Assembly (NCBI RefSeq): GCF_003334305.1
Contig: NZ_QOWS01000003.1
DNA from: Escherichia coli
GTDB taxonomy: Bacteria; Pseudomonadota; Gammaproteobacteria; Enterobacterales; Enterobacteriaceae
Strand: one strand, 5' to 3'
Length of the DNA: 64,000 nucleotides
Below the pieces are notes generated by a model. That model was given only the letters and a program-made list of their open reading frames with translations. It ran no database searches and had not been told where the DNA came from. The position numbers were made by a program, and so were the translations under genes. Below, piece by piece: positions 999-41,801 of the stretch (within the stretch, counting starts at the first letter, position 1; every line of letters begins with the position of its first letter).

Positions 999-2018
999 TC
1001 AGAAGTCGGCTTTCAGAACCACGCGATAACGCGCCTTACCGTCGCGCACATGCTGGATGGCGTCGTTAATTTTCGACATCGGGAACAGTTCGGTGGTCGG
1101 CGCAACCTTGCTGCGGGCGGCAAAACGCATCAGCTTACGCAGCTCATAAGGTGTGCCGGTTGCTGAACCAGAGACGCTGCGGTCGCCCGCAATTAACGTA
1201 AAGGCCGGAACAGACAGCGGCGTGAGAACCGCACCGACCGTATGGAAATTACCGCCATAGGTCAGCGCCTCAAAATAAGGCTGCCAGTCGAGGCTGACGT
1301 TGACGGTGTTGATAATGAGATCAAACTGCCCCGCCAGTGCTTTCAGTGCCTGCGGATCGCGGCTATTCACCACTTTATCGGCACCCATCGCCAGCACTTC
1401 CTGCTCTTTCGCCGGATTAGAACTAAAGGCTGTCACCTCGCATCCCATTGCGTGCAGAAGTTTTATAGCGATATGCCCCAGCCCGCCAATACCAATTACC
1501 CCAACGCGGCTGGTGGCAGTGATATGGTGCATCAACAGTGGTTTAAAGACCGTGATACCGCCGCACAACAGCGGCCCGGCAGACTCGATATCAATATTTT
1601 CTGGCAGCGGAATCACCCATTGCCAGTCCGCACGCAACTTCTCGGCAAAACCGCCGCGATTCATAATTGTTGGCACCGCACCTTGCTCGCAGTTGATCTG
1701 ATTACCGCTAATACAGGCATCGCAATGCCCGCAGCTGCGTGCCGTCCAGCCAATCCCGACACGCTGACCGACCTGCAAACCTTTATCCTGTGCGGCGCTC
1801 CCGAGCGCCACCACGCGACCAATCACCTCATGCCCGGCAACCAGCGGATACTGTGAAAATCCCCATTCGTTGTCGATCATCGACAGATCGGAATGGCAGA
1901 TCCCGCAGTAATCCACCTGCACTTCAACATCTTGTGGCTTCAGTTCACCGGGATCGTACTCATAAACTTCCAGTTCGCCGCCCGCTTCTTTTGCGGCATA
2001 GCATTTTATCATCGACAT
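999..2018 (-). CDS. ahr: NADPH-dependent aldehyde reductase, Zn-dependent alcohol dehydrogenase family
   Basis: ORF 999-2060; product from MSMIK... (339 aa) carries the GHEVIG and CGICHSDL zinc-ADH motifs and a GIGGLGH Rossmann motif; matches remembered Ahr/YjgB. Confidence 0.93.
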
Positions 2019-2156
2019 TTTTTGATCCTTCTCTGGTGTTGTCTGGGAAGTGTAGAGCATGGCAGGGCGGGGTGCCTGGAGTGTGACAAAGGTTACACAT
2101 CGCTGTATGCAATGCTGAAAATTTCAGCACTTAGCGAAGTGGGAGCAAGCTGGCGC

Positions 2157-2213: not shown

Positions 2214-2298
2214 GCCGAAGTGGCGAAATCGGTAGACGCAGTTGATTCAAAATCAACCGTAGAAATACGTGCCGGTTCGAGTCCGGCCTTCGGCACCA
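2214..2298 (+). tRNA. leuX: tRNA-Leu (anticodon CAA)
   Basis: 85-nt sequence GCCGAAGTGGCGAAATCGGTAGACGCAGTTGATTCAAAATCAACCGTAGAAATACGTGCCGGTTCGAGTCCGGCCTTCGGCACCA: 7-bp acceptor stem, long variable arm, CAA in the anticodon loop, encoded CCA end. Confidence 0.95.
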
Positions 2299-2314
2299 CA
2301 TCGTATGCAAATCG

Positions 2315-2339
2315 AGTCGCTCAAGGGCGGCTTTTTTTG
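2315..2339 (+). terminator. Rho-independent terminator after leuX
   Basis: Stem agtcgc / gcggct with a 6-nt loop followed by a run of seven T (2333-2339). Confidence 0.55.
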
Positions 2340-2499
2340 TGCCTGAAATCCAGTATCCGCAAGGCTTTCCTCGCTTTTTCACTCAACCTAAGTCAACCTG
2401 ATTCAATCTACATCAACTTACTGATGCGGGTACAACTGCGGGTATTTCCCGGTTCGATTATGTTTGTACCCACACAGGGCCCTTGAAAGGATACTCATC

Positions 2500-3764
2500 A
2501 TGGCTCTGAGTGATGTGAAGGTCCGTTCGGCTAAGCCGGAAGCAAAAGCCTATAAACTTACTGACGGTGAAGGCATGGTTTTGTTGGTCACCCTAATGGC
2601 TCCAAATACTGGCGACTTCGTTATCGTTTTGGCGGTAAGGAGAAGATGCTGGCGCTGGGGAAATACCCTGAAGTCTCGCTGGTCGATGCCAGAGGTCGCC
2701 GGGATGAAGCCCGTAAGTTGTTAGCTAACGGCGTCGATCCTAGTGAGAACAAGAAAGCTGTTAAGGTAGAGCATGAGCAAGAGGTGATAACGTTTGAAGT
2801 GGTAGCCAGAGAGTGGCACGCCAGCAATCAGAAGTGGTCTGCATCGCATAGCGCTCGTGTATTGAAAAGCCTCGAAGATAATCTCTTTGCTGCTATCGGT
2901 AAGCGGAACATTGCTGATCTGAAGACTCGGGATCTGCTTGTCCCCATCAAAGCGGTGGAGTCGTCTGGGCGTCTCGAAGTCGCTGCTCGTTTGCAGCAGC
3001 ATACTACCGCGATTATACGCTTTGCTGTACACAGTGGATTAATCGACTACAACCCCGCTCAAGAGATTGCTGGTGCGGTTGCTACGGCGAAAAGACAGCA
3101 TCGTGCTGCTCTGGAACTTAACCGCATTCCTGAATTGCTTCAACGCATCTATCACTATTCTGGCAGGCCGTTAACCCGACTGGCGGTTGAACTCACATTG
3201 TTAGTTTTCATCCGTTCAAGCGAGTTGCGTTTTGCTCGCTGGTCAGAAGTTGATTTTGATACTGCCATGTGGACGATTCCGGGAGAACGTGAGCCACTGG
3301 AGGGAGTTAAGCATTCTCAGCGTGGTTCGAAGATGCGGACTCCACATCTTGTACCCTTATCTCGACAAGCTCTCACCATTCTGGAAAAAATCAAAAGCAT
3401 GAGTGGAAACCGTGAGCTGATCTTCGTTGGTGATCACGATCCGCGTAAGCCAATGAGTGAGAATACGCTTAACAAGGCCTTGCGAGTGATGGGCTATGAC
3501 ACGAAAACGGAAGTGTGTGGACATGGTTTCAGGACGATGGCGTGTAGTTCTTTGATTGAATCGGGATTGTGGTCGAGGGATGCAGTAGAGCGGCAGATGA
3601 GTCATCAGGAACGTAGCTCAGTACGGGCGGCTTATATCCATAAGGCGGAACATCTTGGGGAGCGAATGTTGATGCTGCAGTGGTGGGCTGATTATCTGGA
3701 TGCGAATAGAATGGCGGCTATCACTCCATTTGACTATGCAAAGATTAATAGTTCTTTTCGATAA
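2500..3764 (+). pseudogene. intB: P4-family tyrosine integrase with an N-terminal frameshift; longest intact frame 2646-3764
   Basis: ATG at 2500 gives MALSDVKVRSAKPEAKAYKLTDGEGMVLLV and then leaves frame; the expected continuation HPNGSKYWRLRYRFGGKEKMLALGKYPEVSLVDARGRRDEARKLLANGVDPS is in the other frame joined at about nt 2589, consistent with a 1-bp deletion (gtcac where gtccac is expected). Position next to a tRNA 3' end is typical for P4-type integrases. Confidence 0.75.
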
Positions 3765-3820
3765 TTCTATCTAAGTATATGAATATTAACTGTTTTTTAA
3801 TTAAAGGCTTATAACTGAGA

Positions 3821-3854
3821 AGCCTCCGCCCTAATGGGGAGAGGCTTTTGTCTT
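3821..3854 (+). terminator. Possible terminator hairpin after the integrase gene
   Basis: agcctc / gaggct inverted repeat followed by tttgtctt; the loop is long (14 nt), so this is weak. Confidence 0.3.
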
Positions 3855-3965
3855 AACTCAATCAAGAAGGAAATCGTTATGTAAAACTTTATTTTTTTGT
3901 CCGGTATGTGAACGGAAGTGTTAAATATCCACTATGCCTTGTTCGCGCAATGGTCATCCTTTCAA

Positions 3966-5435
3966 TCAAATAACTCCAAGCTTTGCATACAATTCTTTTT
4001 TCTCTTTCATGCTGTTATCCAATGGTGCTACTCGCAATGCCGCTTTCAAATAAGCCGCAGCACCAGAGTAATCACGCATTTGCTCGCAAACTAAAATGAG
4101 TTGGCTTAACACATGGAACTTCATTGGAGTTGTTTGGTTTACTTTCTCCAATAGTACTCTTGCTTCAGAATATTTCGCTTCAAGGCCAAGGATAGATGAT
4201 TCTAAATACATGGTGGCCGCGTTTTCTGCTTCAGCTTGCTTTCGTTGCAACAGCCAGAAATTTGCTTGACTGATATTGCGTAACTGTAGGTTTGCCTTAA
4301 CTATCAACTCGAACAAAGCTGCTGGTTGAGTCAATTTACCCTCAAGTAAGATCGCTTTATTATCTTCTACAACTTTTTCAAAGTCGAATAAGCGATTGGC
4401 GCGATACAAGGCAATAAGTTGCTGATGTAAAGCTTGTAGATCTTTACTGCGGCTATACTCCTGCGACGCTAATTGAGCAGCTTTTTGGTAAGATTGATCG
4501 GACATTGCTTCAAGTACCGCACTTGACCAGTCCTGAGCAGGTTTAGTTTGAAAAACGGGAGCAATAGCACCAACTTTTAATTGCTTAGTGGCAGCAGAAT
4601 CAAATGCATGAATTAAGTCGGAAATAGTGGAAAAGCGATCCTCCGCTCGTTTTTGTAAACAAGTAAGAACCACTTGTTCCAGGTCCGTATGAATAGAGCT
4701 ATTAATCTCTGTCGGAAGCTTGAAAGGTGCGTGGCGCTGAACTTGTGCTGGCGTATCATGGGGCAGCTTTCCTGTCAGCAGCTGGTATAGCAAAACACCT
4801 AAGCTATAGATGTCGCCCAATAGTAGCTCTTCCAGGCTGCCTCTACGGCTATCGACGTTGGAGAACTCTGGGGCCGAATACAGCACAGTCCCGCCATTTT
4901 CACGGGTACGAACGTAAATTTCTTCTGGTAAAGCTGAGCTGCCAAAGTCCGTCAACTTCACCAGGTCCCGCTCTCCAACCAAAATGTTATGTGGCTTAAT
5001 ATCTCCATGAGATATTGGTACTGGTAATTCGGCCAAATAATGCACAGCACAGAGCACTTGACGATATATTCTGAACAACCGTTCATAGGTCTGGCCAAAA
5101 TTACGCTGCCTGTCATCGAGCTTTTGCGCCAGGGTTTGGCTGGGAAAATACTCCATTTCAATATAGAACCATTCATTATCTATACGGCCCATATCAAAAA
5201 TTTGCACAATATTTTCGTGCGGCTCGACGTTTAAAAGCTCTTTACCTTCGGCAAGCTGACGGTCTTCCCGAGTAATATCCTTAGGGATTTTTACTGCGAC
5301 AATTTTTCCATCTTTCAGGCGTTCCGCCCGCCATACCCAGCCATGGCTGCCATCACCAAGGCATTCAAGTAACAGGTATTTGTCACCAAGGCGTTTATTC
5401 GTCCCTGGCAAAAAATGTGCTGATTTTATATTCAC
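3966..5435 (-). CDS. Hanks-type Ser/Thr protein kinase with a C-terminal helical (TPR-like) domain
   Basis: 489-aa ORF with Gly-rich loop LGDGSHGW, catalytic lysine in VAVKIP, catalytic loop HGDIKPHN, DFG, SAPE and DIYSLGVLLYQLLTG; C-terminal half is helical and repeat-like. Last gene of the operon; its start overlaps the upstream gene stop by 4 nt. Confidence 0.88.
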   Translation of the reverse strand: MNIKSAHFLPGTNKRLGDKYLLLECLGDGSHGWVWRAERLKDGKIVAVKIPKDITREDRQLAEGKELLNVEPHENIVQIFDMGRIDNEWFYIEMEYFPSQTLAQKLDDRQRNFGQTYERLFRIYRQVLCAVHYLAELPVPISHGDIKPHNILVGERDLVKLTDFGSSALPEEIYVRTRENGGTVLYSAPEFSNVDSRRGSLEELLLGDIYSLGVLLYQLLTGKLPHDTPAQVQRHAPFKLPTEINSSIHTDLEQVVLTCLQKRAEDRFSTISDLIHAFDSAATKQLKVGAIAPVFQTKPAQDWSSAVLEAMSDQSYQKAAQLASQEYSRSKDLQALHQQLIALYRANRLFDFEKVVEDNKAILLEGKLTQPAALFELIVKANLQLRNISQANFWLLQRKQAEAENAATMYLESSILGLEAKYSEARVLLEKVNQTTPMKFHVLSQLILVCEQMRDYSGAAAYLKAALRVAPLDNSMKEKKELYAKLGVI

Positions 5436-5974
5436 ATCAACACCTCATAGTGAATTCTGTCCAAAACAATCATGTTCAGGTTTTTGATAAATAAAAAGCG
5501 ACTAAATACCACCTCAACATCAGGAGCGGCGATTACTTGGGTACCCGTGGACGAAGTAAAACCCATACGGCATATGTCTTTCAGTTTTTGAGTATCAGGT
5601 ACACCTACTAAGCCTTGGCTCCAGGCACTGAGGACCAGGGTTTTGGGGCAATGATTCCAGCGCTGTGCTGCTTCCAGTAAGTTTTTTAATTTTTCTTCCA
5701 GCTTTTGCTGCCCCTTCGCTGAACCATCAAAGCGTTCAAATTCGATTAAACACACAGGCGATGCAGAAGATTTATGAAACCAGCCCGAGTCAGAGCGAAT
5801 ATCAGCACCAAATGTCCCTGGAGCCGGGCATTCCACTACCGCCATAAATGACTGTTCATGCCCGAATGTATTCCAAACGCTACAGCCCAGGCTGTGGACC
5901 AATACATCCTGGTCCAATAGCTTACCGCTTGCTAAAAGTGGAAATGTCTCATTTACCCAGGCAACTTCAGGCAT
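5432..5974 (-). CDS. Hypothetical protein (about 180 aa), operon partner of the kinase
   Basis: ORF track 5432-6031; the first ATG is at 5974 (complement of 5972-5974), 7 nt after the HerA-like stop and preceded by AAGGTG. No recognisable motif. Confidence 0.7.
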   Translation of the reverse strand: MPEVAWVNETFPLLASGKLLDQDVLVHSLGCSVWNTFGHEQSFMAVVECPAPGTFGADIRSDSGWFHKSSASPVCLIEFERFDGSAKGQQKLEEKLKNLLEAAQRWNHCPKTLVLSAWSQGLVGVPDTQKLKDICRMGFTSSTGTQVIAAPDVEVVFSRFLFIKNLNMIVLDRIHYEVLM

Positions 5975-5981
5975 AGGCACC

Positions 5982-7667
5982 TTAGCCACTGAAAGAGCCC
6001 CAAACACGCAGTACCTCTGGTGATTCACCACCGTGAATTAATGCCTTACTACCAACTTTAACAAGCAGTGGTGCAGGGATTGAACGACCACACACCAAAG
6101 CTTCACCGGTTGATAAACTCGGGAGTTCCTCCAGATCAGCTTTGCTCACCATATCTGATGCTTTAGCTATAAATCGTTGATCGTCAGGGTTCTTTAAGCG
6201 CATCGTAATTAGCGTATTGCACTGAGAGGTCACATCTGAATCTAATTTCGATGGACGCTGGCTCACAATGCCAAATCCAACGCCAAATTTACGACCTTCA
6301 CCAGCGATCTTTTTAATAATGCGGTGACTGACTGCGTTGCCGCCGGCCGGGGCAAAATTATGACCCTCTTCGTAAATGATAAAGCATGGGCGCAGCGGGT
6401 CCGTTTTGCTCGAGGCTGCTTTTAATATTTCACTAGATAACAGTGCACAAATGACTTGCTTAGCGGTATCACTCAAACCTTGTAAGTCAACAACGACTAA
6501 ACGCCCCTGTTGATTGCTCGGGCGACCCACCATTTTGTAAATATCAGTTGGCTCAGCCATTGTTGCGCTGTAAAAACTTTTAGCTTCATTAAGCACACGT
6601 GAAAGCTTCATCGAGGCGACGGCGGCACTACGGCCTGATAACGCCTTCGCCTCAGCTTCAGAAAGGTCGTCCCACTCTTTTAACTCTTCAATACCATCAC
6701 CTAATAAGAAGCGTAGGCGGTTAATATCTCGTGGCTCAGTCTTATCTGCAGAGCGCCAATAACGAATTGCAACATCGAGTACTCGTTGCTGCGGTTCCGT
6801 TAAGCCAGGTAATATTTCAGCAATATCGTCCATTTCAAAATGGTCAAACTGAAGCGCTAATGGCGTATTCTTACTGGCGTATTTATGTTTAAAAGATTCA
6901 TGCTGCGGCGAGTAAACCTGAATACCTGCACCGGCGGCTTGCAGCTTTTCAAAGGTCTGTTTTATCAGTGGCAGTGCTTCTTGATCACGCTTATCGTCAG
7001 TGGCTTCTAAGAAGCTTGAGAATTGCAGATTACCGCCAGCGAGGGCTTTACCGTATTCACCATGTGGGTCAAATACTACTACCGTACCGTTATTAACCGC
7101 AACTAAACGCTCAATAATGCGGCCAACTGTATAAGACTTACCTGAACCCGTCATTGCCAGAACAGCCAAATGCTCAGTGACCAACTTGTTCACGTCAATA
7201 AAAACAGGAACTGTATTCTCACCTTTGTCGTAGCCTACTAAGTTACCTAAGTGCAAACTGGAGTGTTCATTAAATTCGTAAAAATCACTCAAAAACTGAA
7301 AATCGACGGTTTCAACAGCGGTACCCGGGTTAAGCGGGCGACGTGGAATTTTGATTTGACGAGTAACAGGATCGCGGTAACCAACCAGCTCGACCTGAGC
7401 AAACATATTCTCACCAGTTACATTCGCACCGGGCAAAAGCTCAAGCTCGGTTACACCATCGCCAAAGCCGGCGTTATAGAGCATATTAGTACGGCTTATC
7501 TTGGTCACTCGCCCCAGTACGGCGACTTGCCCCTCATCTTTGCGTTCCTGGTGCATAATGCGTACAAACTCACCACGGCGTACTGAAAACGAGTCTTGTA
7601 CAACCATAGTTAACTGACTGGCATCACCAGTGTTACCGACTAATTTACCTAAAACTTTATAAGCCAT
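5982..7667 (-). CDS. HerA/FtsK-superfamily P-loop ATPase (DUF87-like)
   Basis: 561 aa; Walker A LAMTGSGKSYT, then VVVFDPHGEY, Walker B-like FIIYEEGHNF and a C-terminal GVGFGIVSQRPSKLD segment typical of HerA-type ATPases. Confidence 0.82.
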   Translation of the reverse strand: MAYKVLGKLVGNTGDASQLTMVVQDSFSVRRGEFVRIMHQERKDEGQVAVLGRVTKISRTNMLYNAGFGDGVTELELLPGANVTGENMFAQVELVGYRDPVTRQIKIPRRPLNPGTAVETVDFQFLSDFYEFNEHSSLHLGNLVGYDKGENTVPVFIDVNKLVTEHLAVLAMTGSGKSYTVGRIIERLVAVNNGTVVVFDPHGEYGKALAGGNLQFSSFLEATDDKRDQEALPLIKQTFEKLQAAGAGIQVYSPQHESFKHKYASKNTPLALQFDHFEMDDIAEILPGLTEPQQRVLDVAIRYWRSADKTEPRDINRLRFLLGDGIEELKEWDDLSEAEAKALSGRSAAVASMKLSRVLNEAKSFYSATMAEPTDIYKMVGRPSNQQGRLVVVDLQGLSDTAKQVICALLSSEILKAASSKTDPLRPCFIIYEEGHNFAPAGGNAVSHRIIKKIAGEGRKFGVGFGIVSQRPSKLDSDVTSQCNTLITMRLKNPDDQRFIAKASDMVSKADLEELPSLSTGEALVCGRSIPAPLLVKVGSKALIHGGESPEVLRVWGSFSG

Positions 7668-8814
7668 TATTCAATCCCTCATCGAGGCCTGCCAACCACC
7701 CTGCCTCAATATCATTATTCTTTAGTGCCTGGTGTAAACCCTGGCGATAAAACGTAGCAAATTTAGGTAAAATACCAAGCTGTTGATAACCAAGTAATTG
7801 TGGCAACGGCATTGCATTACCTTTGTTTTGCATATCCAGCACCATCAGGCGAGAGGCAACTAAATCGAGATCAGCACTTTTCCATTCTGGTTCGTCACCC
7901 GCTAATTGCACCATTTTTATCTGTCCACCTCGGGCACTACGGAAGTGAAAACCAATTAGACCTTGCTTAGCTTCAATATTGGGTTCAATGCGCTTTTCTT
8001 GTTCAGACAAACGAAATGCGATGGTGCGCGAATAGTTGCCTAAAATGCCATTGATAAATCGCAAATCTCCCACGCCAACCAAACTTTCATCCAGTCCTTC
8101 CAGATTTTGCATCAACTCTTTAGAAAACCCATCAGATGCTAAAATTTGTTTGCGTCCTTGTTCGGTACGTAAATCTTGTTTGGCGATACTTACAATGGCA
8201 CTAAAGCGCTCAGCCAAAATGCTCGCAAGTACTACACCATTTTGATTCCAGGGAAAAATTCTGGAGCGATGGTTTTGCCAAAAAGTTTCTATCACTTGTC
8301 TGGTTTTTTCGTACTCTTGTTTATGACGGACATTTCTCTCCAGCGGAGCCATATCCCGTGCTAAAAACAACGGCGTATCCAGCAAAATTAAATCGCCAGG
8401 CTCATAACCTAAAAGTTTTTTCTCAACTAACTGATAAGCCTGACGAATTTCAATTAAATCAAGCCGTTTACGCTGAGCTTCAAAATCAATATCATCCAGT
8501 TCTGATACCGAGTCGCTACCCACCGTGCTGACTTTATTGTCATCTATTAACAAATCTGTGCGCACTGCTGCACTGGCATAAATAAAACCACCCAATACCT
8601 TGTCTAAGCACGATTTAGTCGCAATACCGGCTACGCGTAAATTAACAATTGTGGGCTTGGGGACCGCTTTCACTAAGCCAGCATCACGGAATAGCGGCGC
8701 CACTTGCTCAATATCACGGACCTGTTTAAGCAAGCGTCCTGCACTTCCCGGTAAGCGAAGCTGGCTATCGATGGCGAGCGATTGCGCTAAATTCATCGTT
8801 TTGTTCTCATTCAT
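7657..8814 (-). CDS. Hypothetical protein (about 386 aa)
   Basis: ATG at 8814 (MNENKTMNLAQ...) lies 2 nt after the stop of the upstream gene; its 3' end overlaps the HerA-like start by 11 nt. No confident motif. Confidence 0.75.
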   Translation of the reverse strand: MNENKTMNLAQSLAIDSQLRLPGSAGRLLKQVRDIEQVAPLFRDAGLVKAVPKPTIVNLRVAGIATKSCLDKVLGGFIYASAAVRTDLLIDDNKVSTVGSDSVSELDDIDFEAQRKRLDLIEIRQAYQLVEKKLLGYEPGDLILLDTPLFLARDMAPLERNVRHKQEYEKTRQVIETFWQNHRSRIFPWNQNGVVLASILAERFSAIVSIAKQDLRTEQGRKQILASDGFSKELMQNLEGLDESLVGVGDLRFINGILGNYSRTIAFRLSEQEKRIEPNIEAKQGLIGFHFRSARGGQIKMVQLAGDEPEWKSADLDLVASRLMVLDMQNKGNAMPLPQLLGYQQLGILPKFATFYRQGLHQALKNNDIEAGWLAGLDEGLNNGL

Positions 8815-8816
8815 GC

Positions 8817-9665
8817 TTATAGCGTTCCTGTGTGTAGCTGCTCGCCAAGTAATGGGGCATAAGCCCAATATTGCGAGGCTTGTAGGCATGTTTTACCGGT
8901 AGCTGTTATGCCCGCGTCGTCGATAAAATCGTGCTGCCGCAACATCTCACCCCGCTTGACAATATCAAGGCTATTAACATCAAACATCAGCTTAACCGCA
9001 TTATGCTCAGACAACGCTTGTAAGTTCATGCCACCGCCAGCGTAGAGTAATAGCAATACAACTAGATCGTGCTTATCTGGCGTGTAGTCAGTTGATGGCG
9101 CTTTAGGTTCGATTATTCGTTCAGCAATGCCTGCATGGTCCACAAACCAATTCAACCAGCTCACCAGGAGCTCACTATGATCGAGTAAAGTCAGCGACCA
9201 CAAAGGTAACGTGGTAAAGGCTAATAGCCCACTGTTGCTGTGTTTTCGTATGTAGCGGGTATGCACTACATCACCGGCCTGGTGCTGGTAGCGATCTGCG
9301 CTGCCAGTAAAGCCAGCAATAGCCTGGTCTGTTTCACTGGCTAGCAAAGCGGTTAGCCCCGGTTCCTGCCCCCTCAAGCTCGCTGGTACTAACTGCCAAT
9401 CCAGTGGATAGGGCAATTGCGCTAATAAGGTAAATTGTTCTGCTTTCAGGTTTATTACCAAAGCGGCACAACCTGCCTGCATAGCCCAGTGATACAGGTG
9501 CTGCATAGTATTAGCGTCAGTCAACTCTTCTGCTTGCACTATTAACAAACCGCTGGCTGGCGGCGAGCTAATCCAATCCTTCATTAAGGGGGTAGCCCCC
9601 GCAACAGTTTGCAAAAAACGGCCTTTACGATTACTGGCCAGTGCCGCAGATAAATAACGACTCAT
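8817..9665 (-). CDS. Hypothetical protein (about 282 aa)
   Basis: ATG at 9665 (MSRYLSAAL...), 10 nt after the stop of the 1428-aa gene; the longer frame to 9692 needs a non-ATG start. No recognisable motif. Confidence 0.72.
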   Translation of the reverse strand: MSRYLSAALASNRKGRFLQTVAGATPLMKDWISSPPASGLLIVQAEELTDANTMQHLYHWAMQAGCAALVINLKAEQFTLLAQLPYPLDWQLVPASLRGQEPGLTALLASETDQAIAGFTGSADRYQHQAGDVVHTRYIRKHSNSGLLAFTTLPLWSLTLLDHSELLVSWLNWFVDHAGIAERIIEPKAPSTDYTPDKHDLVVLLLLYAGGGMNLQALSEHNAVKLMFDVNSLDIVKRGEMLRQHDFIDDAGITATGKTCLQASQYWAYAPLLGEQLHTGTL

Positions 9666-9675
9666 CGCGTCACCT

Positions 9676-12600
9676 CTACAAACCAGTGGCAAAGGTAAGG
9701 CGCATTTTTACAATGCCTTTGTCTACAAGTCCTTTCTGTTGCTCAGGTGTTAACACGGGTTCCTGATTTTGGCTCAAAGCCTTATAAATCGGTTGCCAAT
9801 CCGCCAGTGTTAAGCCTGTATCATTTAATATTTGCTCACCTTGACTCTGCCATTTGGCCTGGGTGCTTTCACACACCTGTTGAAGTTCTCTGACACCCAA
9901 ATTGCTCACATCCTCCAGAGTCAACGCTGCTGGTTCCGCTTGCTTTTGAGAAGCCAATAGCGGTTTTAATAACGGCAGCCAGCTGTTTACCTGTGCGATG
10001 GAGTTGCGTCTTACTTGGTTTAGACGCTCTTCAATTTTAAGTAGCTGGCCTTGAATCGGTGTAAGTTGACCGCGTGCCGGTTTTAAAAGCTCTTCTGGTA
10101 AATCCCGTAACGATGAAAACTGCCCATTGCGCAAACTGTTTTGCATACTTTGACGCTTGCTCTCTGCATCACTGGGGAGATCGGCAATAGCATCTTCAAT
10201 GAGCTGTAATTTCATTACCAGTTTTGGTAGCTCTGCAATGTCATCGGCGAACTGATACTCAGCCGTGGCGCTACTAAGCCATTCTTGCAGTTGTTGTGCA
10301 CGTAGTTTTTGCTCTGTGAGGTTATTAACCAGCTTACTAAATCGTTCTTTGCAGTTGCGGTAGCTGGACAAAATATGCCCCTGAATCTCCGCTATCGGCA
10401 ACTGTTGATCATTGTGCAGGTTTAAACCCACTTCTTGCGCTAAGGCTGAAAGCTTGTCATGCGCTCTACCTAAATCGAGTTTACGCAGGTAATGCAGTAA
10501 GGTATCGCTATCTGCTTGCTGCTCTTTTCGGCCAGTGGCACTGCTGGTATCGTCTTTTAACGCTCCATCTAAAATATGACCTATGGTGCGCAGCGTGTTG
10601 GTGTACAGACGTTTCGGAAAATTCGTCAGCGGGGCACACTCTGTTTCAACATCTATGATTAAATCAACGAGTCGGTTGTTGATACGCTCAGCGCTGCACT
10701 CAACAAACTCGGCAAATAAACAGGCCTGTTCAATCCGTTGATAAAGCGAGGTCGTTTTGTCTTCTAAGCTGAGAATATGGGCATCTTTTAGCATAGGCCT
10801 GGAACTATTAAGCGGTTTAACCTTTGCTACCAGCTCCAGCACTTCAGCGCGTTTGTGGATAAGCCCTGCCAATACTTTCGTGTCGTTGGCCTCGACCATA
10901 TCAGCCAATTGTTCTTCTTGCTGTTTGAGCACGTTAAATAGCGATTGTGCTTTTTCCAGCTGCTCTTTAGCTTCCACGGTGACGAAACCCAGCTTATTTT
11001 TACCCAGTGGCGCGAACATTTCATTAATGCGTGCATAACCATACACGCGGCTCATGACTTCCACATTGGCTGCATAGCTGCCCATATCGTTACCACGGAA
11101 CCAGTTTTGCGCTTCTCTAATGGCATTTTCTAAGCGGGAGCGCGGGTAGTGCTCCCAAATTGCCTGTTTTTCTGTTGGATTGGTTAAAGTGAGTAAGTTC
11201 AGCTCTCCACACCACCACATCCAGTCATTAAACACGCCTTTGGCGGTAACACTCGTTTCAGCCACATAGGCGAAATAAAACTGTTGCTTAAAGCCTTCGA
11301 ATTGCCACTTGTGCTTTTTATTAGGGTGAGCAATACGGGCTAAAAATAATGGGATCTGCGCCTGGCTTCGCTGCACATTATTAAGTTCAGTAAATAGCCC
11401 GGCATGTTCATCGGCAGTGTAACCTTTGGCAATATAGCTGCCCGGCACCTTAAGTTTATCCAACAAGCTGCTCAGCTCATTCACTGGCACGCCGTGTTGC
11501 TGCTGTAAATCGAGAATGCCATTTAACTCAGGGTGAGCAATGGCCAGCTGATACCAGCCTTTAAACAACAGGTCTCGGTCATTCGGTGATAATTTACCAT
11601 CTACCTTTAACGGCCAGGCAATTAAACCGCGCTGCTGCAAACGCTGGCGCCACTTGTGAATGGCATCCGTGGCAAAGGTTGTCAGGGCATGCAGCTTGTT
11701 TTTGAATTTCGCGGTAAAGCTGTCGGCAGTTAAATTCACGCCGTGCAACTGACATGCTGCCAAACTTAAGCCAATACGCTCTAACTGGTCTGCTTCGCTT
11801 GGGTTGACATAATGCAGCAGTATCGCATCACGCAACTCATTTCTTTCATCCAGTCGGCTGTATTGCTCCATGAGATGTGCAGAAGCAGTTAACGCTAATA
11901 CTGGCGTGCGACCATTTTGGTGGCTGTGGTTTGCCGCAAAGGTGTGAAGATTGTTCAGCTCAATTAGGTTGCTGACCCAGGCAAACAAGGCTTTACCTTC
12001 TGGGTGAAGCTTAAATCCATCCAGGGTAAGTAAACCACCCTGGCGGCCACGGGGCTCGGTTAAAATGGCCAAAGGTGCATCGTCGCTGCCCGCTTTATTA
12101 CTCAGCAAGTTTTCATCATAGGTCCAGTTGTTATCAAGTAATCTCACAAAGCCCGTTACACGGGCTAATGCCTTGATGAGCGGCTTCTGGCTACTTTGTT
12201 TGCTAAGTTCACTCATTGCCTGTTCATGAGCGTCGCCCATGGCGGGATCTTTAAAAATCAGTGAGTTTTGCTGGGCACTGCGATAGCGCAAATCCAGGCG
12301 CAGTAACATCGCCACACTGGGGCCAATATGCGTTGCTTCGCTGGCGTCCAGTTCGGTAGTTTCACCCACTAGCTTGTGCCATAAGGCATCGGCAGCGAAT
12401 TCAATCGCTGGGTGGTCATACAGCAAGCTGAGTAAGTATTTAAACTCACCTTTTGACAGAGGTAGTAATACCGCGCCTTTATCGCCGCTTGCGGCTTGTT
12501 CTTTAATTGAAAAAGTACGCAGGTTATCCAGCAAAGTATCTAAGTTCAGCGCTTGATCTACTGCAGGGTAGTACCATTCATCTTTATCGCGGCGGAATTT

Positions 12601-13962
12601 GGCTTGCTCCAGGGCTTGTCGGCACTGTAGGCGGTCAATGCTCAGTTTGCGGTAATGAGCGGCTATGGGTTCCAGATCTTCGTTTTTCAGCGCCAGCAAT
12701 TCTGTGGCATAGCCCATTTCAGCTAAGCGCACGGGTAATTGGCCGTAGAGCAAACTACGACATTCGGTCAATAGTGCCTGGTCGCGAGTTTGAATGCCTT
12801 CTATCGCGCCTTTATCCAGCACATGCCTGGCTACGCGGCCAGAGCCTGCCAGCACAGCTTCAAATAAATCGCCCACATCCTTGATACTGCGGCCTGCTTG
12901 TTGGTATTGGCTCAGCACTGCATCCACATTAGCCATGACCACGTTAAACCAACCGAAGTTGGCACCACTCATGGCGTATGCAGCTTCCACTAAACCAGCA
13001 GGGTAATTAAAACCCAGCTTGCCGTCTTTTAAGAGGCTTGCCACATAGTCTGATACATCGGCAAAGGCATTATGCTCAAGTTCCACTAACTCAAAGCGGC
13101 GTGCGACCGATTGAATTTCGCGCAATTGCTGGCCAAGCAGTGGTGAACACAGCGCTACATAGCGCAACCATGGAAGTTTACGGCGAGGGTCTTCCTCTTT
13201 AATTGCTTTACCAATCAGGCGAATGGCCTGGCCATCGAGGCGTTTATTTTGTTCATCTTCCAGGCCAAAGGTGGCGGCTTCTGCAACGGTTTCCAGCTCA
13301 TCCAGCACCACCAACATATACTGCACGCCAAAGCTCTTTAATACTTTATAGGCGGCTTGCACCAAACTGACTACCAGCGTTTGGTCAGTATAGAGGTCTT
13401 CTTCGCTGTGGTTGGCGTTCAGCTGTAAGGCATCTGCTAACAGTTCAGATTTAAAGCCAAATGGCATTAAGCGTTCATAGGCTTGTTTGGCAATTTCACT
13501 TTGAATCGATCCATCAAAGGTTTGGGTGGCCAGTGGTAATAGCGCCTGATATAAACCAAAAGCAAACCAGTTATCCGAGTTTTGATAATCTGATGCCACT
13601 TGCGAGTAGCGAATGTAGAGCGCCAGGTATTTGTCTTGCGTGTCGCGATTAAACAGCTGCTTATCGTGCAGTTGGCCTTGTTCGTCGCGGACAAACCAGC
13701 CCCTTGAACAGTCGTTAATTTGTGCAACCAATTCATGGCCTAAACGTGATTTACCCCGACCCCATTCGGCTTCGACGGCAAACACATGGGCAAAGCGATC
13801 ATCGTCGTGATCCACCGTATGCAAAAAGGTTTGAAAGCGTTTAAAAAAGCGGCTCTGGCCCACTAACGGGTCGCGAGGTGGATAATCTGATACGCCCGTC
13901 GCCGCCCAGCGATGTTGTTTTGCCAGGCTATCAACCATCTGTTCGTTTAATTCAAAACTCAT
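9676..13962 (-). CDS. Giant protein (1428 aa) with an N-terminal KAP-type P-loop NTPase domain and about 1200 aa of helical extension
   Basis: Walker A AEWGRGKSRL (the GxWGxGKS pattern of KAP NTPases) near residue 65 and Walker B MLVVLDELE about 150 residues later; the remainder is long and uninterrupted. ATGA overlap with the upstream gene. Confidence 0.85.
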   Translation of the reverse strand: MSFELNEQMVDSLAKQHRWAATGVSDYPPRDPLVGQSRFFKRFQTFLHTVDHDDDRFAHVFAVEAEWGRGKSRLGHELVAQINDCSRGWFVRDEQGQLHDKQLFNRDTQDKYLALYIRYSQVASDYQNSDNWFAFGLYQALLPLATQTFDGSIQSEIAKQAYERLMPFGFKSELLADALQLNANHSEEDLYTDQTLVVSLVQAAYKVLKSFGVQYMLVVLDELETVAEAATFGLEDEQNKRLDGQAIRLIGKAIKEEDPRRKLPWLRYVALCSPLLGQQLREIQSVARRFELVELEHNAFADVSDYVASLLKDGKLGFNYPAGLVEAAYAMSGANFGWFNVVMANVDAVLSQYQQAGRSIKDVGDLFEAVLAGSGRVARHVLDKGAIEGIQTRDQALLTECRSLLYGQLPVRLAEMGYATELLALKNEDLEPIAAHYRKLSIDRLQCRQALEQAKFRRDKDEWYYPAVDQALNLDTLLDNLRTFSIKEQAASGDKGAVLLPLSKGEFKYLLSLLYDHPAIEFAADALWHKLVGETTELDASEATHIGPSVAMLLRLDLRYRSAQQNSLIFKDPAMGDAHEQAMSELSKQSSQKPLIKALARVTGFVRLLDNNWTYDENLLSNKAGSDDAPLAILTEPRGRQGGLLTLDGFKLHPEGKALFAWVSNLIELNNLHTFAANHSHQNGRTPVLALTASAHLMEQYSRLDERNELRDAILLHYVNPSEADQLERIGLSLAACQLHGVNLTADSFTAKFKNKLHALTTFATDAIHKWRQRLQQRGLIAWPLKVDGKLSPNDRDLLFKGWYQLAIAHPELNGILDLQQQHGVPVNELSSLLDKLKVPGSYIAKGYTADEHAGLFTELNNVQRSQAQIPLFLARIAHPNKKHKWQFEGFKQQFYFAYVAETSVTAKGVFNDWMWWCGELNLLTLTNPTEKQAIWEHYPRSRLENAIREAQNWFRGNDMGSYAANVEVMSRVYGYARINEMFAPLGKNKLGFVTVEAKEQLEKAQSLFNVLKQQEEQLADMVEANDTKVLAGLIHKRAEVLELVAKVKPLNSSRPMLKDAHILSLEDKTTSLYQRIEQACLFAEFVECSAERINNRLVDLIIDVETECAPLTNFPKRLYTNTLRTIGHILDGALKDDTSSATGRKEQQADSDTLLHYLRKLDLGRAHDKLSALAQEVGLNLHNDQQLPIAEIQGHILSSYRNCKERFSKLVNNLTEQKLRAQQLQEWLSSATAEYQFADDIAELPKLVMKLQLIEDAIADLPSDAESKRQSMQNSLRNGQFSSLRDLPEELLKPARGQLTPIQGQLLKIEERLNQVRRNSIAQVNSWLPLLKPLLASQKQAEPAALTLEDVSNLGVRELQQVCESTQAKWQSQGEQILNDTGLTLADWQPIYKALSQNQEPVLTPEQQKGLVDKGIVKMRLTFATGL

Positions 13963-15260
13963 AACGACGATCCTTGAAGGTTTATTCTATTGGCGGCGCG
14001 TTTTTTATTGGCATAGCAGTTTTGCGCCAGTTGCTTAATGGTCCGTTGTAACGTTTGGCTTTTGTAGCCAAATAGTGGTGCTAACGGCAGGCTATAACAG
14101 GCATCGCTGAAGCTTGTATGAATTCGATATTGGCCGGCCTCTCCACGACCCGCCTCGGTAAATTGCCAGATTTTTTTTGCCAACAATTCGGCAATGAATG
14201 AGCTCAGGACGCGGTTTAGGCGGTTGATGCTTTCCGTGTTCGCATCGAGTGCCGGGTAGAGGGGTATATTGAGCTCACCGAGCAGAAGCACAAGAAACTC
14301 GGCCAAACTACCCAGACTCACCTCATCACCTTCAATGCCCTGTACCGCCACATTTATTTGACCGGGGGCAAAGGCATTTTGCCCGGCAGGTAAGGTGAGC
14401 AACAAACCGCCACGTTGCTCGGCAGCCCAGGCATCTTGCACAAAGATAATTAGACTGAGTAAAAATAACCAGGGCTGTTGGGCGAATAGCTCGGTAAGCG
14501 GCATGTTGTCATGACCCGAGCGGGACACCAATAACCAATCGGCATTGGGTTTAAGGTTATGTTCATCAAGCAAGGTATTAGGGAGTGCTAACAACCGCCC
14601 ACTACACCAGTTATTTGTCAGTTGTTTTGCGGTGACATCCACCGCTTGTATAGGTGCCGGTGGTTCATTTTGTTCGCTCACGGTAAACAAGGTATAGCTG
14701 GTGCGCAAAATACGACATAGCGCGGGAATGGCAGCATTGTCGTTTAGGCTATGACCGAGCAAATCGCGTTCGGTTTGTGCCAGAGGGCCGGCAATGATTT
14801 GCGGCGTGGTGGCAGTGCTTTCCAGCTGGGCTAAGACCCATTCACTGGCATTGCCCAGTTGCTGAATGAGTTTAACCAATACCATTGTGTCACTCATCGT
14901 GCCTGCTTCCTGGCAGCGAGCGGCGGCTAAATTGATCCAATGTTGGCGAACATCTGGGTTTAAGCCCAACAACGCTAATTGCCATTCACCTGACTGGCTT
15001 AAATCGTTAAAGGCATCAAGCAATGGTGCAGTGAGGCTAAAGGCGCTAACGATATCCGTTTCAGCGTCGTTCTTTTTCGGCTGTATTATTGGTTGTAGCA
15101 GTGACCTAAGGGCAGGCACAGCCGCCAATAACAATGCTGCTTTGTTGGCGTTCAAACCACCTTGTTGCCAAAGCTGCAGGCAGAGGTTAAGTGCCGCTTC
15201 GCTATTTACGGGGTCGTTATATTGCCTGGTTGTACTGCTGTCCGTGCCCCTTGTCTCCAT
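13959..15260 (-). CDS. Hypothetical protein (433 aa)
   Basis: Complete ORF starting METRGTDSS; 2-nt gap to the upstream HsdS-like gene and 4-nt overlap with the downstream gene. No recognisable motif. Confidence 0.78.
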   Translation of the reverse strand: METRGTDSSTTRQYNDPVNSEAALNLCLQLWQQGGLNANKAALLLAAVPALRSLLQPIIQPKKNDAETDIVSAFSLTAPLLDAFNDLSQSGEWQLALLGLNPDVRQHWINLAAARCQEAGTMSDTMVLVKLIQQLGNASEWVLAQLESTATTPQIIAGPLAQTERDLLGHSLNDNAAIPALCRILRTSYTLFTVSEQNEPPAPIQAVDVTAKQLTNNWCSGRLLALPNTLLDEHNLKPNADWLLVSRSGHDNMPLTELFAQQPWLFLLSLIIFVQDAWAAEQRGGLLLTLPAGQNAFAPGQINVAVQGIEGDEVSLGSLAEFLVLLLGELNIPLYPALDANTESINRLNRVLSSFIAELLAKKIWQFTEAGRGEAGQYRIHTSFSDACYSLPLAPLFGYKSQTLQRTIKQLAQNCYANKKRAANRINLQGSSL

Positions 15261-15262
15261 CT

Positions 15263-16741
15263 TTACTCTTCAGCCTCCGCTTGCGCCGCCTCTTCCAGCA
15301 AACTGTATAACTCATCCACATCGCTAAATAGCGGTGTGGCACCTTCAATGGCATAACCCTCAGCGCTCAGTTTGCTTAAAATCGCTTGATCAAAGCTGCT
15401 GTCGCCATCTTCCAGGGCTTGTTGGGCCTGGATTAGTTGTTGCTCAGTCAGTTGGCCTTCGATTAATGACTCAACTAGAGTTTTGGCAGATGCTGTTAAC
15501 TTTTTTGCATATGCTGCCGTAGTAACGGCTAGTCTCAGCTTACTTCCTATTTCTCTATTCTTCGCTATGTCAATCGGAATCAGAATATTTAACAGGTTTT
15601 CTGAAGTCACTTTTGGTACAACGCTGCCAGTAGTCACACCTTTCCAACACGGAAAGTGTTTATCCAGGAACCTACAAATAGACTCAATATCATATTCATC
15701 TTTTACCTTTAAAACCCAAACATGGTTGTTTGCCCAAAACTTTCCATCAGCTACATTTGCACAGCCAATAGAGCCATCTTGCGCAATAATCAGATATTTA
15801 CCGTTGAAATTGAATTCGGTATGAGTATCTATTGGACCTGATGCGCCATAGTAAAAATATGGTCCGGGTACTCTGTCTTCCGATTTAATAGGGTCGCCAC
15901 ATTTGCATTTACTAATGAAATTAGATAGTTTTGATGAATTCCTAAAGGTCATTTGACTATCGGCCGCACGTGCAAACTCAGGAGCTAAAGACACTGCTGA
16001 TAATACCTGTTGTTTCATTCTTCTAGGTTTCAATGTTAATGAATCAACAAGGTTGAAGTGAAATAAATCTTTAATTTTTCTATCAGCCATTCCTTCAAGT
16101 CGTTTCGCCCAAGCGCGTAACTGCTCGGCTTGGCGAACTTTATCCCCGATGTATTTTTGGGCTAGAGGTAAAACTTTAGGAACCGCTAGCGAGCGGACAC
16201 TTGGGAAGTCAATTGCAGGGCGAGTTGCGCCATATGCTTCCTTCCAGATCGCTACTTGTCCGGTTTTGCTATTCAAATATGCCACCAAGAAATAGGCGTC
16301 AACTTTTTTGGGATCGGGCTTGAATCTGACTGAGTGCTGACTAATGTTGGCCGGTAGATGTTTAGCTGACACAACAGCCGATTTACCAAATTTTGCACCA
16401 GTAATCGTAAGTAAAACGTCGCCATCCACTAATCGGCTGCGCTTTAATTTTTCATCATCTTCATCGTTAATAAAAACAGCTTCTTCAGCTTGCAAGAACA
16501 TTTCTTCAACTTCAGAAGTGCGATAAAACTTAACACGGCCTTTTTCTAAATAATTTGCTCCTAAAGGTGTTGCGCCACTAGCCACCCCGCGCTTTGAATC
16601 AATTACCGCTTCTAGGGGCAAAGCACCTAGGTTGTCTTTTATCTTATTAATTTGTCTTTCAAATCGCGGTTGATAGTGCCAAGGATCAATCCGCCTTTCA
16701 GACAATTGTTCGGGTGTTCTTTTAAAAATAGTTGCCATCAC
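15263..16741 (-). CDS. Type I restriction-modification specificity subunit-like protein (HsdS-like, two target-recognition domains)
   Basis: Two repeated TRD-end segments (GATRPAIDFPSVRSLAVPKVLPLAQ and GVTTGSVVPKVTSENLLNILIPIDIAKNREIG) plus a helical C-terminus, resembling HsdS. Start is GTG at 16741 or ATG at 16738, overlapping the methyltransferase stop. Confidence 0.75.
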   Translation of the reverse strand: MMATIFKRTPEQLSERRIDPWHYQPRFERQINKIKDNLGALPLEAVIDSKRGVASGATPLGANYLEKGRVKFYRTSEVEEMFLQAEEAVFINDEDDEKLKRSRLVDGDVLLTITGAKFGKSAVVSAKHLPANISQHSVRFKPDPKKVDAYFLVAYLNSKTGQVAIWKEAYGATRPAIDFPSVRSLAVPKVLPLAQKYIGDKVRQAEQLRAWAKRLEGMADRKIKDLFHFNLVDSLTLKPRRMKQQVLSAVSLAPEFARAADSQMTFRNSSKLSNFISKCKCGDPIKSEDRVPGPYFYYGASGPIDTHTEFNFNGKYLIIAQDGSIGCANVADGKFWANNHVWVLKVKDEYDIESICRFLDKHFPCWKGVTTGSVVPKVTSENLLNILIPIDIAKNREIGSKLRLAVTTAAYAKKLTASAKTLVESLIEGQLTEQQLIQAQQALEDGDSSFDQAILSKLSAEGYAIEGATPLFSDVDELYSLLEEAAQAEAEE

Positions 16742-18885
16742 TCACCCCGCTTATAAGCCGATACAATCTTATCCAGATCGTTTGCGACACCGGCGTTATA
16801 GTCTTCGATATTGTTTTTCACCACATAACCCAATGTTTCAGCCACTGCCATAAACACGTCGGTTTGTGGCTCGGGCAAAAATTGCTCTGGCTGGTTGGGG
16901 TTAGCATGGCGTTTTTGTAAATACAAAATCGAGGTTTTGGCCCCCGTACCGGAGAGTTTAAAGCAGTCGCTCGGCAATGAAATTACTGCTTTTACAATAG
17001 CTTTACCGCCAACAAACTCGCCGGTTTTTTCGTCTTTTTTCCCCATAATGTACTCACGGACATAACGGTCGCCGGAGTTACATAAAATACCATCAGGCAG
17101 CACTATTAACAGGCGGCCACCGGGTTTAAGCAGTTGCAGGCAGCGGTCGATAAAAAGTACTGCTGGGTCAATAGTGGCACCTACCGGTTGCCAGTTGCCC
17201 TTGCTATCGGGCTTGCTGCCCAGCGCGAGCCCTGCGGTTGTAGGCTGCAGGCTGTAAAACGGCTTTTTATCAGTCCCGCCCGTTCTGCGCAAATCGGTAC
17301 GGTAGCCCGCCCATTTAGGCTCGCCGTTTTCATCCAGCTCTAAATCACCGATATCCTGCCACTTCATTTTCACGTGGTCATACCAGGCGTTGTAGCTATC
17401 AACGACTTTTTTGGTCGGACGAAAACCACCGAGCACTTGCTCCATATTGGCTTCGTAATTGGCTTTTGAGTTTTGACCATTTTTGCCTTTATCAAATTTA
17501 GGCGTACCGAACGGCGGGTTGGTGCAAATCAGGTCAAAGCTATTCGGCTTCAGAGCGTTAGTAGTGAGTGAGTTGTCGGTATAAAAAATCTGCGCTTTGG
17601 GGGCACCTTGCAATGCCATATTCACGCGGGCCAGCATTACCATGCGTGGTGCAGCATCGGCACCGGTAAATGCACAGTCGCGTAATTTTTGTTTCAATGA
17701 TTCTTTTTTATCGTCGGCCAGCACCAGCTTAAAATCGATCCATTTATCAATCTGGCTTAACGCCACCGAGCCAAAACCAAAGGAGCCACAGGTGGGGTCG
17801 CAGAAACGAAAATCGCCATTGGCTAAGCGCGATCGCATTTCATCGTCATCGTCGATGTCGTGCATAGCAATTTCTAGCATGGCCTGTTTTACTGGGTTTG
17901 GTGTTAAATAAACGCCAAGGCCACCTTTGGATTCAAAGTTAGCGCGTAGGAATACATCAAACACTCTGCCTAGTAAATCTCCTGACACATCAGCCAACGT
18001 GCCGTGTTCTTTCGCGATTTTACCGTCGTTGGTTTTTACCGGACCCAGGTTTTGTATTGCTTCCAGCAAATCCTGATAGTTTTTCGCAACAGACAGTCGC
18101 AGGTGTGTTTCTTTACTAAAGATGGGGTTACGTGAGCCATCATCTGAGATCACAACGTAGTTTTCGTGGCTTTTAAATTCCTCAAAGGCGGCTTTGATTT
18201 GGGCAACGGCTTTATCGCCGTGGCTCTCCACATATTGCCAATCAAAGACATCACGAAAACGCAGGGTATTTCCCTCATCATCTTTAAAGGTAAGGTCTTC
18301 ATCGTGATGCAGGCGGAAAGTTTCTAAAAACAGAAGCTTAGCTACTTCTTCAATAATGTCGTTCTTGTCGTTTACCTTGTCTTTGGTAACGCGATAAACA
18401 TTTTCATGGAAGGCATCAAATCGCTGCATTAAGCGTGTATAAACACGCATCGACCAGCGAAAGGTTGGATCACGCTCCATGCGATCAAAGCTACGTAATT
18501 CTTCCAGACCAGGCAGGGTATCTGCACCGTGGGTACCGTCAGATCCATCGGCACCGAACAAGGCCAAAATACGTTGGTTCAAGCCATCGTCCACAACGGC
18601 ATATACTGGCCAGTCACCTTCGATATCACTTAACAGCTGATAGGCTAAATCATCAAACTTTGCAGTGTCAGCGGCGTATTCCCAATGGCCTTCTGTCAGC
18701 GCAATCAACATGACTGGTGGCGTTAAGTTGCCTTCAACCAGGCCTTGAATGAGACCAGCCTTGGCGAATTCATGCTCGGGTAATTCGACCAATGGCTGAG
18801 TAAACTCGGAGTGCTGTTTGACCAGTTTATTGAACAGTGCTTCTAGCTGCTGTTGCGGGTCTTGTTTTTTTGCTTCTTTTGCCAT
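16738..18885 (-). CDS. N6-adenine DNA methyltransferase (HsdM-like) with an extra N-terminal region of about 350 aa
   Basis: 715 aa; AdoMet motif I-like DPTCGSFGFG and catalytic motif IV NPPFG; the domain order resembles the type I M subunit. Confidence 0.85.
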   Translation of the reverse strand: MAKEAKKQDPQQQLEALFNKLVKQHSEFTQPLVELPEHEFAKAGLIQGLVEGNLTPPVMLIALTEGHWEYAADTAKFDDLAYQLLSDIEGDWPVYAVVDDGLNQRILALFGADGSDGTHGADTLPGLEELRSFDRMERDPTFRWSMRVYTRLMQRFDAFHENVYRVTKDKVNDKNDIIEEVAKLLFLETFRLHHDEDLTFKDDEGNTLRFRDVFDWQYVESHGDKAVAQIKAAFEEFKSHENYVVISDDGSRNPIFSKETHLRLSVAKNYQDLLEAIQNLGPVKTNDGKIAKEHGTLADVSGDLLGRVFDVFLRANFESKGGLGVYLTPNPVKQAMLEIAMHDIDDDDEMRSRLANGDFRFCDPTCGSFGFGSVALSQIDKWIDFKLVLADDKKESLKQKLRDCAFTGADAAPRMVMLARVNMALQGAPKAQIFYTDNSLTTNALKPNSFDLICTNPPFGTPKFDKGKNGQNSKANYEANMEQVLGGFRPTKKVVDSYNAWYDHVKMKWQDIGDLELDENGEPKWAGYRTDLRRTGGTDKKPFYSLQPTTAGLALGSKPDSKGNWQPVGATIDPAVLFIDRCLQLLKPGGRLLIVLPDGILCNSGDRYVREYIMGKKDEKTGEFVGGKAIVKAVISLPSDCFKLSGTGAKTSILYLQKRHANPNQPEQFLPEPQTDVFMAVAETLGYVVKNNIEDYNAGVANDLDKIVSAYKRGE

Positions 18886-18935
18886 GATGTTTTCTAAAAT
18901 CCTTTAATACAGCCAATGGTTACTACAAATGCCGG

Positions 18936-19322
18936 CTAATTTATCAGTACCAGCAAGGGGCCTTTAATCTCTATCTGCGCGTGCTTCTGTGCCAGTTTGC
19001 GTATCTGCTGTTCACTGGTCGTAATACCAGCAGGGAGCTTTTTCAGTACTTGTGCAAGGGGCATGCGCCCACCAGCTTGATGCAACAATGATACCAAATG
19101 TGCCGCGATATCAGGTATAACCTGGTACGTTGCCGTTGTGGGCCCTTTTAGATGATTACTTTGAGGCAATGAGGCAAGCCATAGCGAAACTTGAGACTGG
19201 CTAAAGCCAAGTGTTTGCCAGAGGGTTTGGTTCTCATTAAATACAACGGCGGCGCTTCTGGGAGTTGCTGTTTGCTGAGTTATTAGTTGTTCCAGGCTTT
19301 GTCGCTGGTATTCATGGGTCAT
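18936..19322 (-). CDS. Small hypothetical protein (128 aa), possibly helix-turn-helix
   Basis: ATGA overlap with the McrC-like gene stop; a 50-nt gap precedes the methyltransferase gene. The segment TLWQTLGFSQSQVSLWLAS loosely resembles an XRE-type HTH (weak). Confidence 0.65.
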   Translation of the reverse strand: MTHEYQRQSLEQLITQQTATPRSAAVVFNENQTLWQTLGFSQSQVSLWLASLPQSNHLKGPTTATYQVIPDIAAHLVSLLHQAGGRMPLAQVLKKLPAGITTSEQQIRKLAQKHAQIEIKGPLLVLIN

Positions 19323-22730: not shown

Positions 22731-22899
22731 CGTGACTTTTCCTCTGTTGTGACATTACTTATTTTTTAATTAATATGAGGTATTCTAACTATATTGAGTT
22801 AATCGTTGTGACAAGTGCCTGTTATATATACAACTATCTGTTAACTCAGCTCTAATTTAAATACAATGTAAGGTTGTAGGGTGAATGCTGTTATCAACC
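22731..22899 (-). promoter_or_regulatory. AT-rich intergenic region, probable promoter of the 12-gene operon
   Basis: 169 bp between the HNH gene stop and the McrB-like start; candidate -35 TTGTCA (complement of 22809-22814) and -10 TATAGT (complement of 22788-22793) with a short 15-bp spacer, so the hexamer call is weak. Confidence 0.35.
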
Positions 22900-41728: not shown

Positions 41729-41801
41729 GCCCACCTGTACGTGCCAACTTCCAGTGCTAATGGTATAGTTTGAGATTAACGGGGGCCGTAAAATTGCCCG
41801 T

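Follow-up and report, generated by a model that had tools for sequence, protein, structure and literature searches.

In E. coli, the leuX tRNA gene is described as defense "hotspot #37", the most occupied hotspot of the species, anchored on its left side by an arm-type integrase (review PMC12707154). According to a survey that covers the same site, 68% of the occupied cases have no detectable mobile element, many of them with an integrase (Hochhauser et al. 2023, PMC10121019). Islands at another tRNA gene, pheV, provide a second point of comparison. Those without an attR have a mean size of 23.5 kb and have been read as elements that were stabilized by an ancestral deletion of attR and then became fixed (PMC11537424), and the same paper cites the HPI of Yersinia enterocolitica as a further stabilized tRNA island without an attR. 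A third point of comparison is phage P4, whose integrase (440 aa) is built from three domains in the same way as the integrase considered here, beginning with an Arm-DNA-bind_3 domain at the N-terminus.

The locus analyzed in this study lies within a stretch of 64,000 nucleotides of E. coli DNA (assembly GCF_003334305.1, contig NZ_QOWS01000003.1), hereafter called the window. It resembles hotspot #37 in its position, in the arm-type integrase at its left anchor, and in its replaceable defense cargo, whereas integrase pseudogenization and the allele described below, in which a single T is deleted (ΔT), are absent from those parts of the published accounts of the hotspot that are drawn on here (PMC10121019; PMC12707154). 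Like the pheV islands that lack direct repeats, the leuX island has a P4-type integrase beside a tRNA gene, no recognizable attR, and a small size (about 20 kb), but it occupies a different tRNA gene, carries different cargo, and has an integrase gene that is additionally frameshifted. The leuX island fits exactly the picture drawn for its stabilized pheV analogs without an attR.

It is very probable that the integrase gene of the window is a real, inherited pseudogene in an island that became fixed at the leuX hotspot after loss of its right attachment site. The case is an ordinary and known one, that of a mobile element which through decay is becoming a fixed chromosomal segment, and the integrase pseudogene itself is common, already known, and already annotated in E. 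coli.

The leuX target, island borders, and cargo

The only tRNA gene that ARAGORN finds in the window is an intact tRNA-Leu(CAA) gene (2214-2298, plus strand), which is the integration target and is annotated as tRNA-Leu in identical genomes. Its upstream flank is occupied by ahr (999-2060, minus strand), and the combination of this tRNA with ahr upstream identifies the locus as E. coli leuX, as a first-pass annotation made from the sequence had proposed when it spoke of a leuX island. The integrase gene lies directly downstream, and the attachment core is contained in the 3′ end of the tRNA gene. This core, GAGTCCGGCCTTCGGCACCA, is formed by the last 20 nt of leuX (2279-2298, plus strand) and equals the annotated core of the P4 attP. 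Because it is present as a single copy in the window, it acts as attL only.

Several short repeats are located between leuX and the start of the integrase gene. Four TCAAYYT repeats in a 10-bp phase (2383-2419, plus strand, with starts at 2383, 2393, 2403, and 2413) form the sole cluster of this type in the 64 kb and are conserved upstream of the intact integrase allele of E. coli W; they are possibly binding sites for accessory factors or for the integrase. Two copies of TGCGGGTA, placed 12 bp apart (2425-2444, plus strand), are candidate P′ arm integrase sites by analogy with the P4 attP, in which tandem arm repeats (TTGGGGGCATAA/TTGGGGGCATCT) sit upstream of int with the same 12-bp layout and in the same position. 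A near-inverted copy of the arm repeat, read from the sequence (GTACCCAC; 2466-2473, minus strand), might be comparable to the inverted repeat at the start of P4 int. In both systems, the segment that separates the core from int contains a tandem pair of 12-bp repeats along with an inverted copy, although the repeat is TTGGGGGCAT in P4 and TGCGGGTA in the window, and it is plausible that the TGCGGGTA repeats are likewise arm-type integrase binding sites. The window island differs further from P4 in that it carries defense cargo instead of the P4 satellite genes, in that its int is frameshifted, and in that a second att site and a second arm are absent.

The island extends from 2299 to about 22890, or about 20.6 kb. 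All genes that follow the pseudogene are on the minus strand, in the order kinase, HerA-type ATPase, hypotheticals, specificity subunit, methyltransferase, McrC, and McrB. Ten of these genes form a MADS-like defense operon (3966-19322, minus strand; PADLOC and the RefSeq annotation of strain A7). The PADLOC assignments within it, all on the minus strand, are mad6 for a serine/threonine kinase (3966-5435), mad8 for a HerA-type ATPase (5982-7667), mad5 for a type I S (specificity) subunit (15263-16738), and mad2 for a type I methyltransferase (16738-18885). The other six ORFs of the cluster have no PADLOC match, including the one that encodes a hypothetical protein of 1428 aa (9676-13962, minus strand). 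MADS has been described as an eight-gene defense operon and is reported to be most common in Escherichia (MADS preprint). The McrC/McrB restriction genes (19319-22730, minus strand) are taken from the RefSeq annotation of strain A7, which is 100% identical. At least 80% of a probed interval that includes the cargo (3800-28000) was found in 206 genomes.

The right boundary of the variable region falls at 22885-22897. Shared sequence resumes at 22891, where homology with the BREX-carrying strain E2863 begins, and from this point on the sequence is common to nearly all E. coli, including genomes with other cargo. To the right lie a conserved gene for a restriction endonuclease that binds phosphorothioated DNA (22901-23773), nanS/M/C, and fimB. 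The flank at 22901-24964 also contains the remains of an HNH endonuclease together with a truncated pseudogene of nanS, and these remnants are signs of an earlier rearrangement at the right border of the island.

No second copy of the leuX core was found on either strand of the 64-kb window, whether the query was a 23-mer (up to 3 mismatches, or up to 5 errors with indels allowed), an 18-mer (up to 3 mismatches), or a 14-mer (up to 2 errors), limits that a shorter or more degenerate att core could escape. An equal search of the E. coli W locus matched only leuX itself and the junction between the two islands of that strain. Furthermore, the TGCGGGTA pair is unique both in the window and in E. 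coli W, with no second arm-repeat pair in either, and a general search for direct repeats returned only short AT-rich or REP-type repeats. An AT-rich repeat of 20 nt at 3785 and 22754 (85% identical) flanks the cargo, but it was rejected as an att site as a weak, low-complexity match. The TCAACCT at 22894 was also rejected as a right-arm site. Its position matches that of the right junction and is immediately ahead of 22901, where the conserved restriction gene ends, but it is a lone 7-mer inside the conserved sequence that is shared from 22891 onward. The RefSeq annotation names no excisionase or recombination directionality factor among the island genes, and two small hypothetical proteins encoded there (180 and 128 aa) have no match in PADLOC, the one screen applied to them. 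Elsewhere in the window, a perfect direct repeat of 35 nt (TTGTAGGCCGGATAAGGCGTTCACGCCGCATCCGG), found at 41801-41835 and 57317-57351, looks like an ordinary REP-type intergenic repeat.

The integrase gene and its lesion

The integrase gene (2500-3764, plus strand) measures 1265 nt, compared with 1266 nt and 421 aa for the intact allele of E. coli W (WP_001218329.1; 2951-4216 in the extracted W locus). The W allele adjoins the same kinase gene as in the window and shares with it the same upstream 160 nt, the same right junction, and cargo that is about 99% identical, but it is intact and sits behind a second island inserted at leuX. Alignment of the two genes pairs 1265 of 1266 positions. Besides the missing base, there are two substitutions, at 2792 (synonymous) and at 3032 (Q178H), and a window protein with its frame restored would be one residue, Q178H, apart from the W protein.

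From the sequence alone, it had been proposed that the frame starting at the ATG at 2500, which reads MALSDVKVRSAKPEAKAYKLTDGEGMVLLV, is broken near 2589 by the deletion of a single base, and alignment to intact integrases of related leuX islands had been suggested as a check. The alignment with E. coli W bears out this proposal, with a position that was right to within 1 nt. Exactly one base is missing, a T from the TT pair at T2588 (GGTTCAC in the intact allele, GGTCAC in the window), such that the ancestral GTT-CAC at codon 30/31 has been shortened by one T and the frame has shifted. Codon 30 is now GTC (2587-2589, plus strand), as located by alignment with both E. coli W and strain 2014C-3599. 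The possibility that the missing base is instead a C (GTC-CAC) was rejected, as the alignment indicates a T and an 81-nt probe with the C restored has no exact match in the comparison set of 5,426 complete E. coli genomes.

Past codon 30, the frame of 2500 encodes unrelated residues up to a stop at 2722-2724, and the residual upstream ORF (2500-2724, plus strand) thus consists of 30 native and 44 out-of-frame residues. The conserved continuation, HPNGSKYWRLRYRFGGKEKMLALGKYPEV, does lie in another frame, that of 2502, which is free of stops to 3764. As first described, its longest intact portion is 2646-3764 (plus strand; 372 aa from Met50). Apart from the one deletion, the gene contains no further stops, and its catalytic domain is complete.

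In the intact allele, Pfam recognizes Arm-DNA-bind_3 (PF13356) at residues 3-87, Phage_int_M (PF22022) at 99-193, and Phage_integrase (PF00589) at 211-384, the last of these covered at positions 9-170 of a 172-position model. With the frame lost at codon 30/31, the break therefore falls inside the arm-binding domain, where it had originally been placed, and mid-way in the region predicted to bind arm sites of the kind found upstream of the gene. Membership in the P4 family, also part of the first reading, agrees with an identity of 56.9% to P4 Int across 97% of the protein (E = 8e-153). The N-terminal and central domains match CP4-like integrase domains in the PDB (E = 1e-32 to 1e-21), and the match to the NCBIfam integrase domain PRK09692 (E = 2e-74) reaches 250 bits, which is under the curated cut-off of 434 bits. 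The downstream frame contains the tyrosine-recombinase motifs (Arg, His-x-x-Arg, His, Tyr), readable as IRSSEL, HGFR, SH, and AAYIH, and by motif assignment these would supply the catalytic residues. This frame (2646-3764) retains the core-binding and catalytic domains and is without a usable arm domain. No single ORF in the window contains all three integrase domains and, because the frame is broken at codon 30/31, the window holds a pseudogene of the P4 family rather than a functional member. Near-identical integrases are widespread across the Enterobacterales: the 90%-identity cluster of WP_001218329.1 has 4282 members, with hosts that include E. coli, Salmonella, Klebsiella, Citrobacter, Enterobacter, Morganella, Yersinia, Pantoea, and Cedecea.

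The same gene is damaged differently in other strains. In the STEC strain 2014C-3599, the T is present and a GA is missing from the catalytic domain, at the equivalent of window positions 3503-3504. This ΔGA allele, located at 2951-4214 in the extracted locus of that strain, occurs in exact form in 15 genomes, O121 strains among them. One ΔT genome, H155, has lost additional sequence downstream. Thus, the integrase has decayed at least two times independently.

Distribution of the broken allele and alternative readings

The ΔT allele is real and inherited. An 80-nt probe centered on the break matches exactly in 104 of the 5,426 complete genomes, among about 292 genomes (293 records) that carry the integrase, whereas the intact form, assessed as a T-containing sequence of 81 nt, is commoner (163 of the 293 records); these frequencies are confounded by clonal sampling, and the number of ΔT lineages is only approximate. 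The sources of ΔT carriers span humans, livestock, wildlife, fish, soil, and food, in many countries and laboratories. The broken gene is found beside two or more distinct versions of its neighbors ahr and yjgR, as well as once in a tandem-island context with a second island in front, and RefSeq (PGAP) labels the gene "frameshifted" in identical genomes. Two of the 293 matches to the 80-nt integrase probe are plasmid-borne, not chromosomal.

These observations also settle whether the missing T is an artifact of sequencing or assembly in a gene that is truly intact, an either-or choice that had accompanied the original description of the frameshift. Single-base indels are the most frequent type of assembly error, and the lesion lies inside a T-rich stretch (GGTTTTGTTGGTC), but the affected site is a TT pair and not a long homopolymer, as 2500-2724 has no run of five or more. 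Identical sequence across the break in 104 complete genomes from varied laboratories, hosts, and countries also argues against error. At least 40 genomes are 100% identical to the window over 1501 nt (2300-3800), including the two linked substitutions that separate this haplotype from the W allele. Moreover, a wider protein collection lists the exact truncated product of 372 aa for at least 1000 contigs. The artifact reading is effectively refuted, and its residual probability is close to nil. A genuine deletion could still be bypassed if ribosomal −1 frameshifting or transcriptional slippage produced full-length integrase at a low level, but this is extremely improbable. The downstream frame is open from 2569, and a −1 slip between 2569 and about 2590 would give a near-native protein, but this useful interval contains no slippery X XXY YYZ heptamer, and the lack of homopolymers noted above speaks against transcriptional slippage. 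One canonical heptamer in the zero frame (G GGA AAT) is present at 2658; a slip there would still scramble residues 31-53, where the arm domain has its conserved HPNGSKYWRLRYRF core. In addition, the T-containing form is the commoner one, and ΔT is thus a derived lesion rather than a conserved recoding site.

It is very doubtful that an arm-less fragment of 372 aa is translated from the internal ATG at 2646 and kept for an arm-independent role, in which it might act as an arm-independent recombinase, in junction resolution, as a regulator that binds the leuX core, or as a block to incoming elements. A TAAGGAG lies 3 nt upstream of this ATG, the catalytic domain is complete in the downstream ORF, and over 100 genomes show no other damage to that ORF, which a retained fragment would account for. 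However, TAAGGAG is plain coding sequence (G-K-E-K-M) that the intact allele shares, and thus is no evidence of adaptation, and a Shine-Dalgarno spacing of 3 nt is below the E. coli optimum. Constraint on the fragment is further argued against by the O121 lineage, in which the catalytic domain itself is disrupted, and by the ΔT genome with downstream sequence loss. Few extra mutations would be expected in any case if the deletion is recent; the lack of damage beyond ΔT fits a recent event, and would fit continued selection on the downstream ORF as well. A different type of selection, in which integrase loss was favored in order to keep a useful defense island in place, is unlikely. The cargo does comprise a complete defense operon together with McrBC, and two independent frameshifts in one gene, ΔT and ΔGA, are together held by at least 119 of about 292 carriers, but clonal sampling of the sequenced genomes confounds these frequencies. 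Furthermore, strains with an intact integrase hold the same island and the same junction, and without an attR there is nothing to lock.

Probable order of events and consequences for the island

In the preferred reading, that of an inherited pseudogene in an island already fixed, a P4-family tyrosine integrase would once have integrated the defense island at the leuX 3′ end. The right-hand attachment site would later have been lost, and the island would have become a fixed chromosomal segment. With nothing left to recombine, selection on the integrase gene would have been relaxed, and one widespread haplotype would then have lost the T at codon 30/31. The native ATG would now yield a product of 74 residues, of which 30 are native, and at best a protein of 372 aa might be made from the ATG at 2646, with residues 1-49 of the arm-binding domain missing. 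Such an arm-less protein is predicted to be unable to bridge arm and core sites, and would be incapable of arm-dependent integration or excision. Recombinase activity has presumably been lost, judging from the domains that remain.

Parsimony across the three alleles suggests that loss of attR probably came first. The absence of attR is common to the intact allele of W and the broken alleles, and thus most parsimoniously predates the frameshift. Excision had probably become impossible by the time the integrase decayed, and immobilization is probably more the cause of the frameshift than its result. The first-pass annotation had proposed that a real frameshift would likely leave the island immobilized. 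The frameshift stands, whereas the causal step holds only in part, because the island also has no attR in E. coli W, in which the integrase is intact.

For practical purposes, the gene should be labeled a pseudogene, as RefSeq already has it, and the MADS/McrBC island of this strain is best regarded as a fixed chromosomal segment rather than as a mobile element. Beyond correct annotation, the importance of the finding is slight. The locus does present one island at hotspot #37 with three integrase states (intact, ΔT, and ΔGA) and a common right junction without an attR. It can serve as an example of how defense islands that have only an integrase become stranded, and of how the turnover of hotspot cargo need not rely on the resident integrase.

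New islands still enter between leuX and the dead integrase. In strain 158274-3, a second island separates leuX from the integrase that was already frameshifted, an arrangement that implies that other elements could still insert at leuX before the broken gene. The E. coli W locus runs from leuX through a first integrase, a 23-kb island, a degenerate copy of the leuX 3′ end (25788-25808), and the intact integrase to the shared island. This tandem arrangement was read at 2874-27272 in W locus coordinates, and the extra integrase-bearing island carries type I R-M, AbiE, and CbtA/YeeU. The one segment of the shared island that is not colinear with W, which is about 99% identical elsewhere, is 15463-16724 in the specificity-subunit gene, and this divergence suggests a swap of target-recognition domains between strains.
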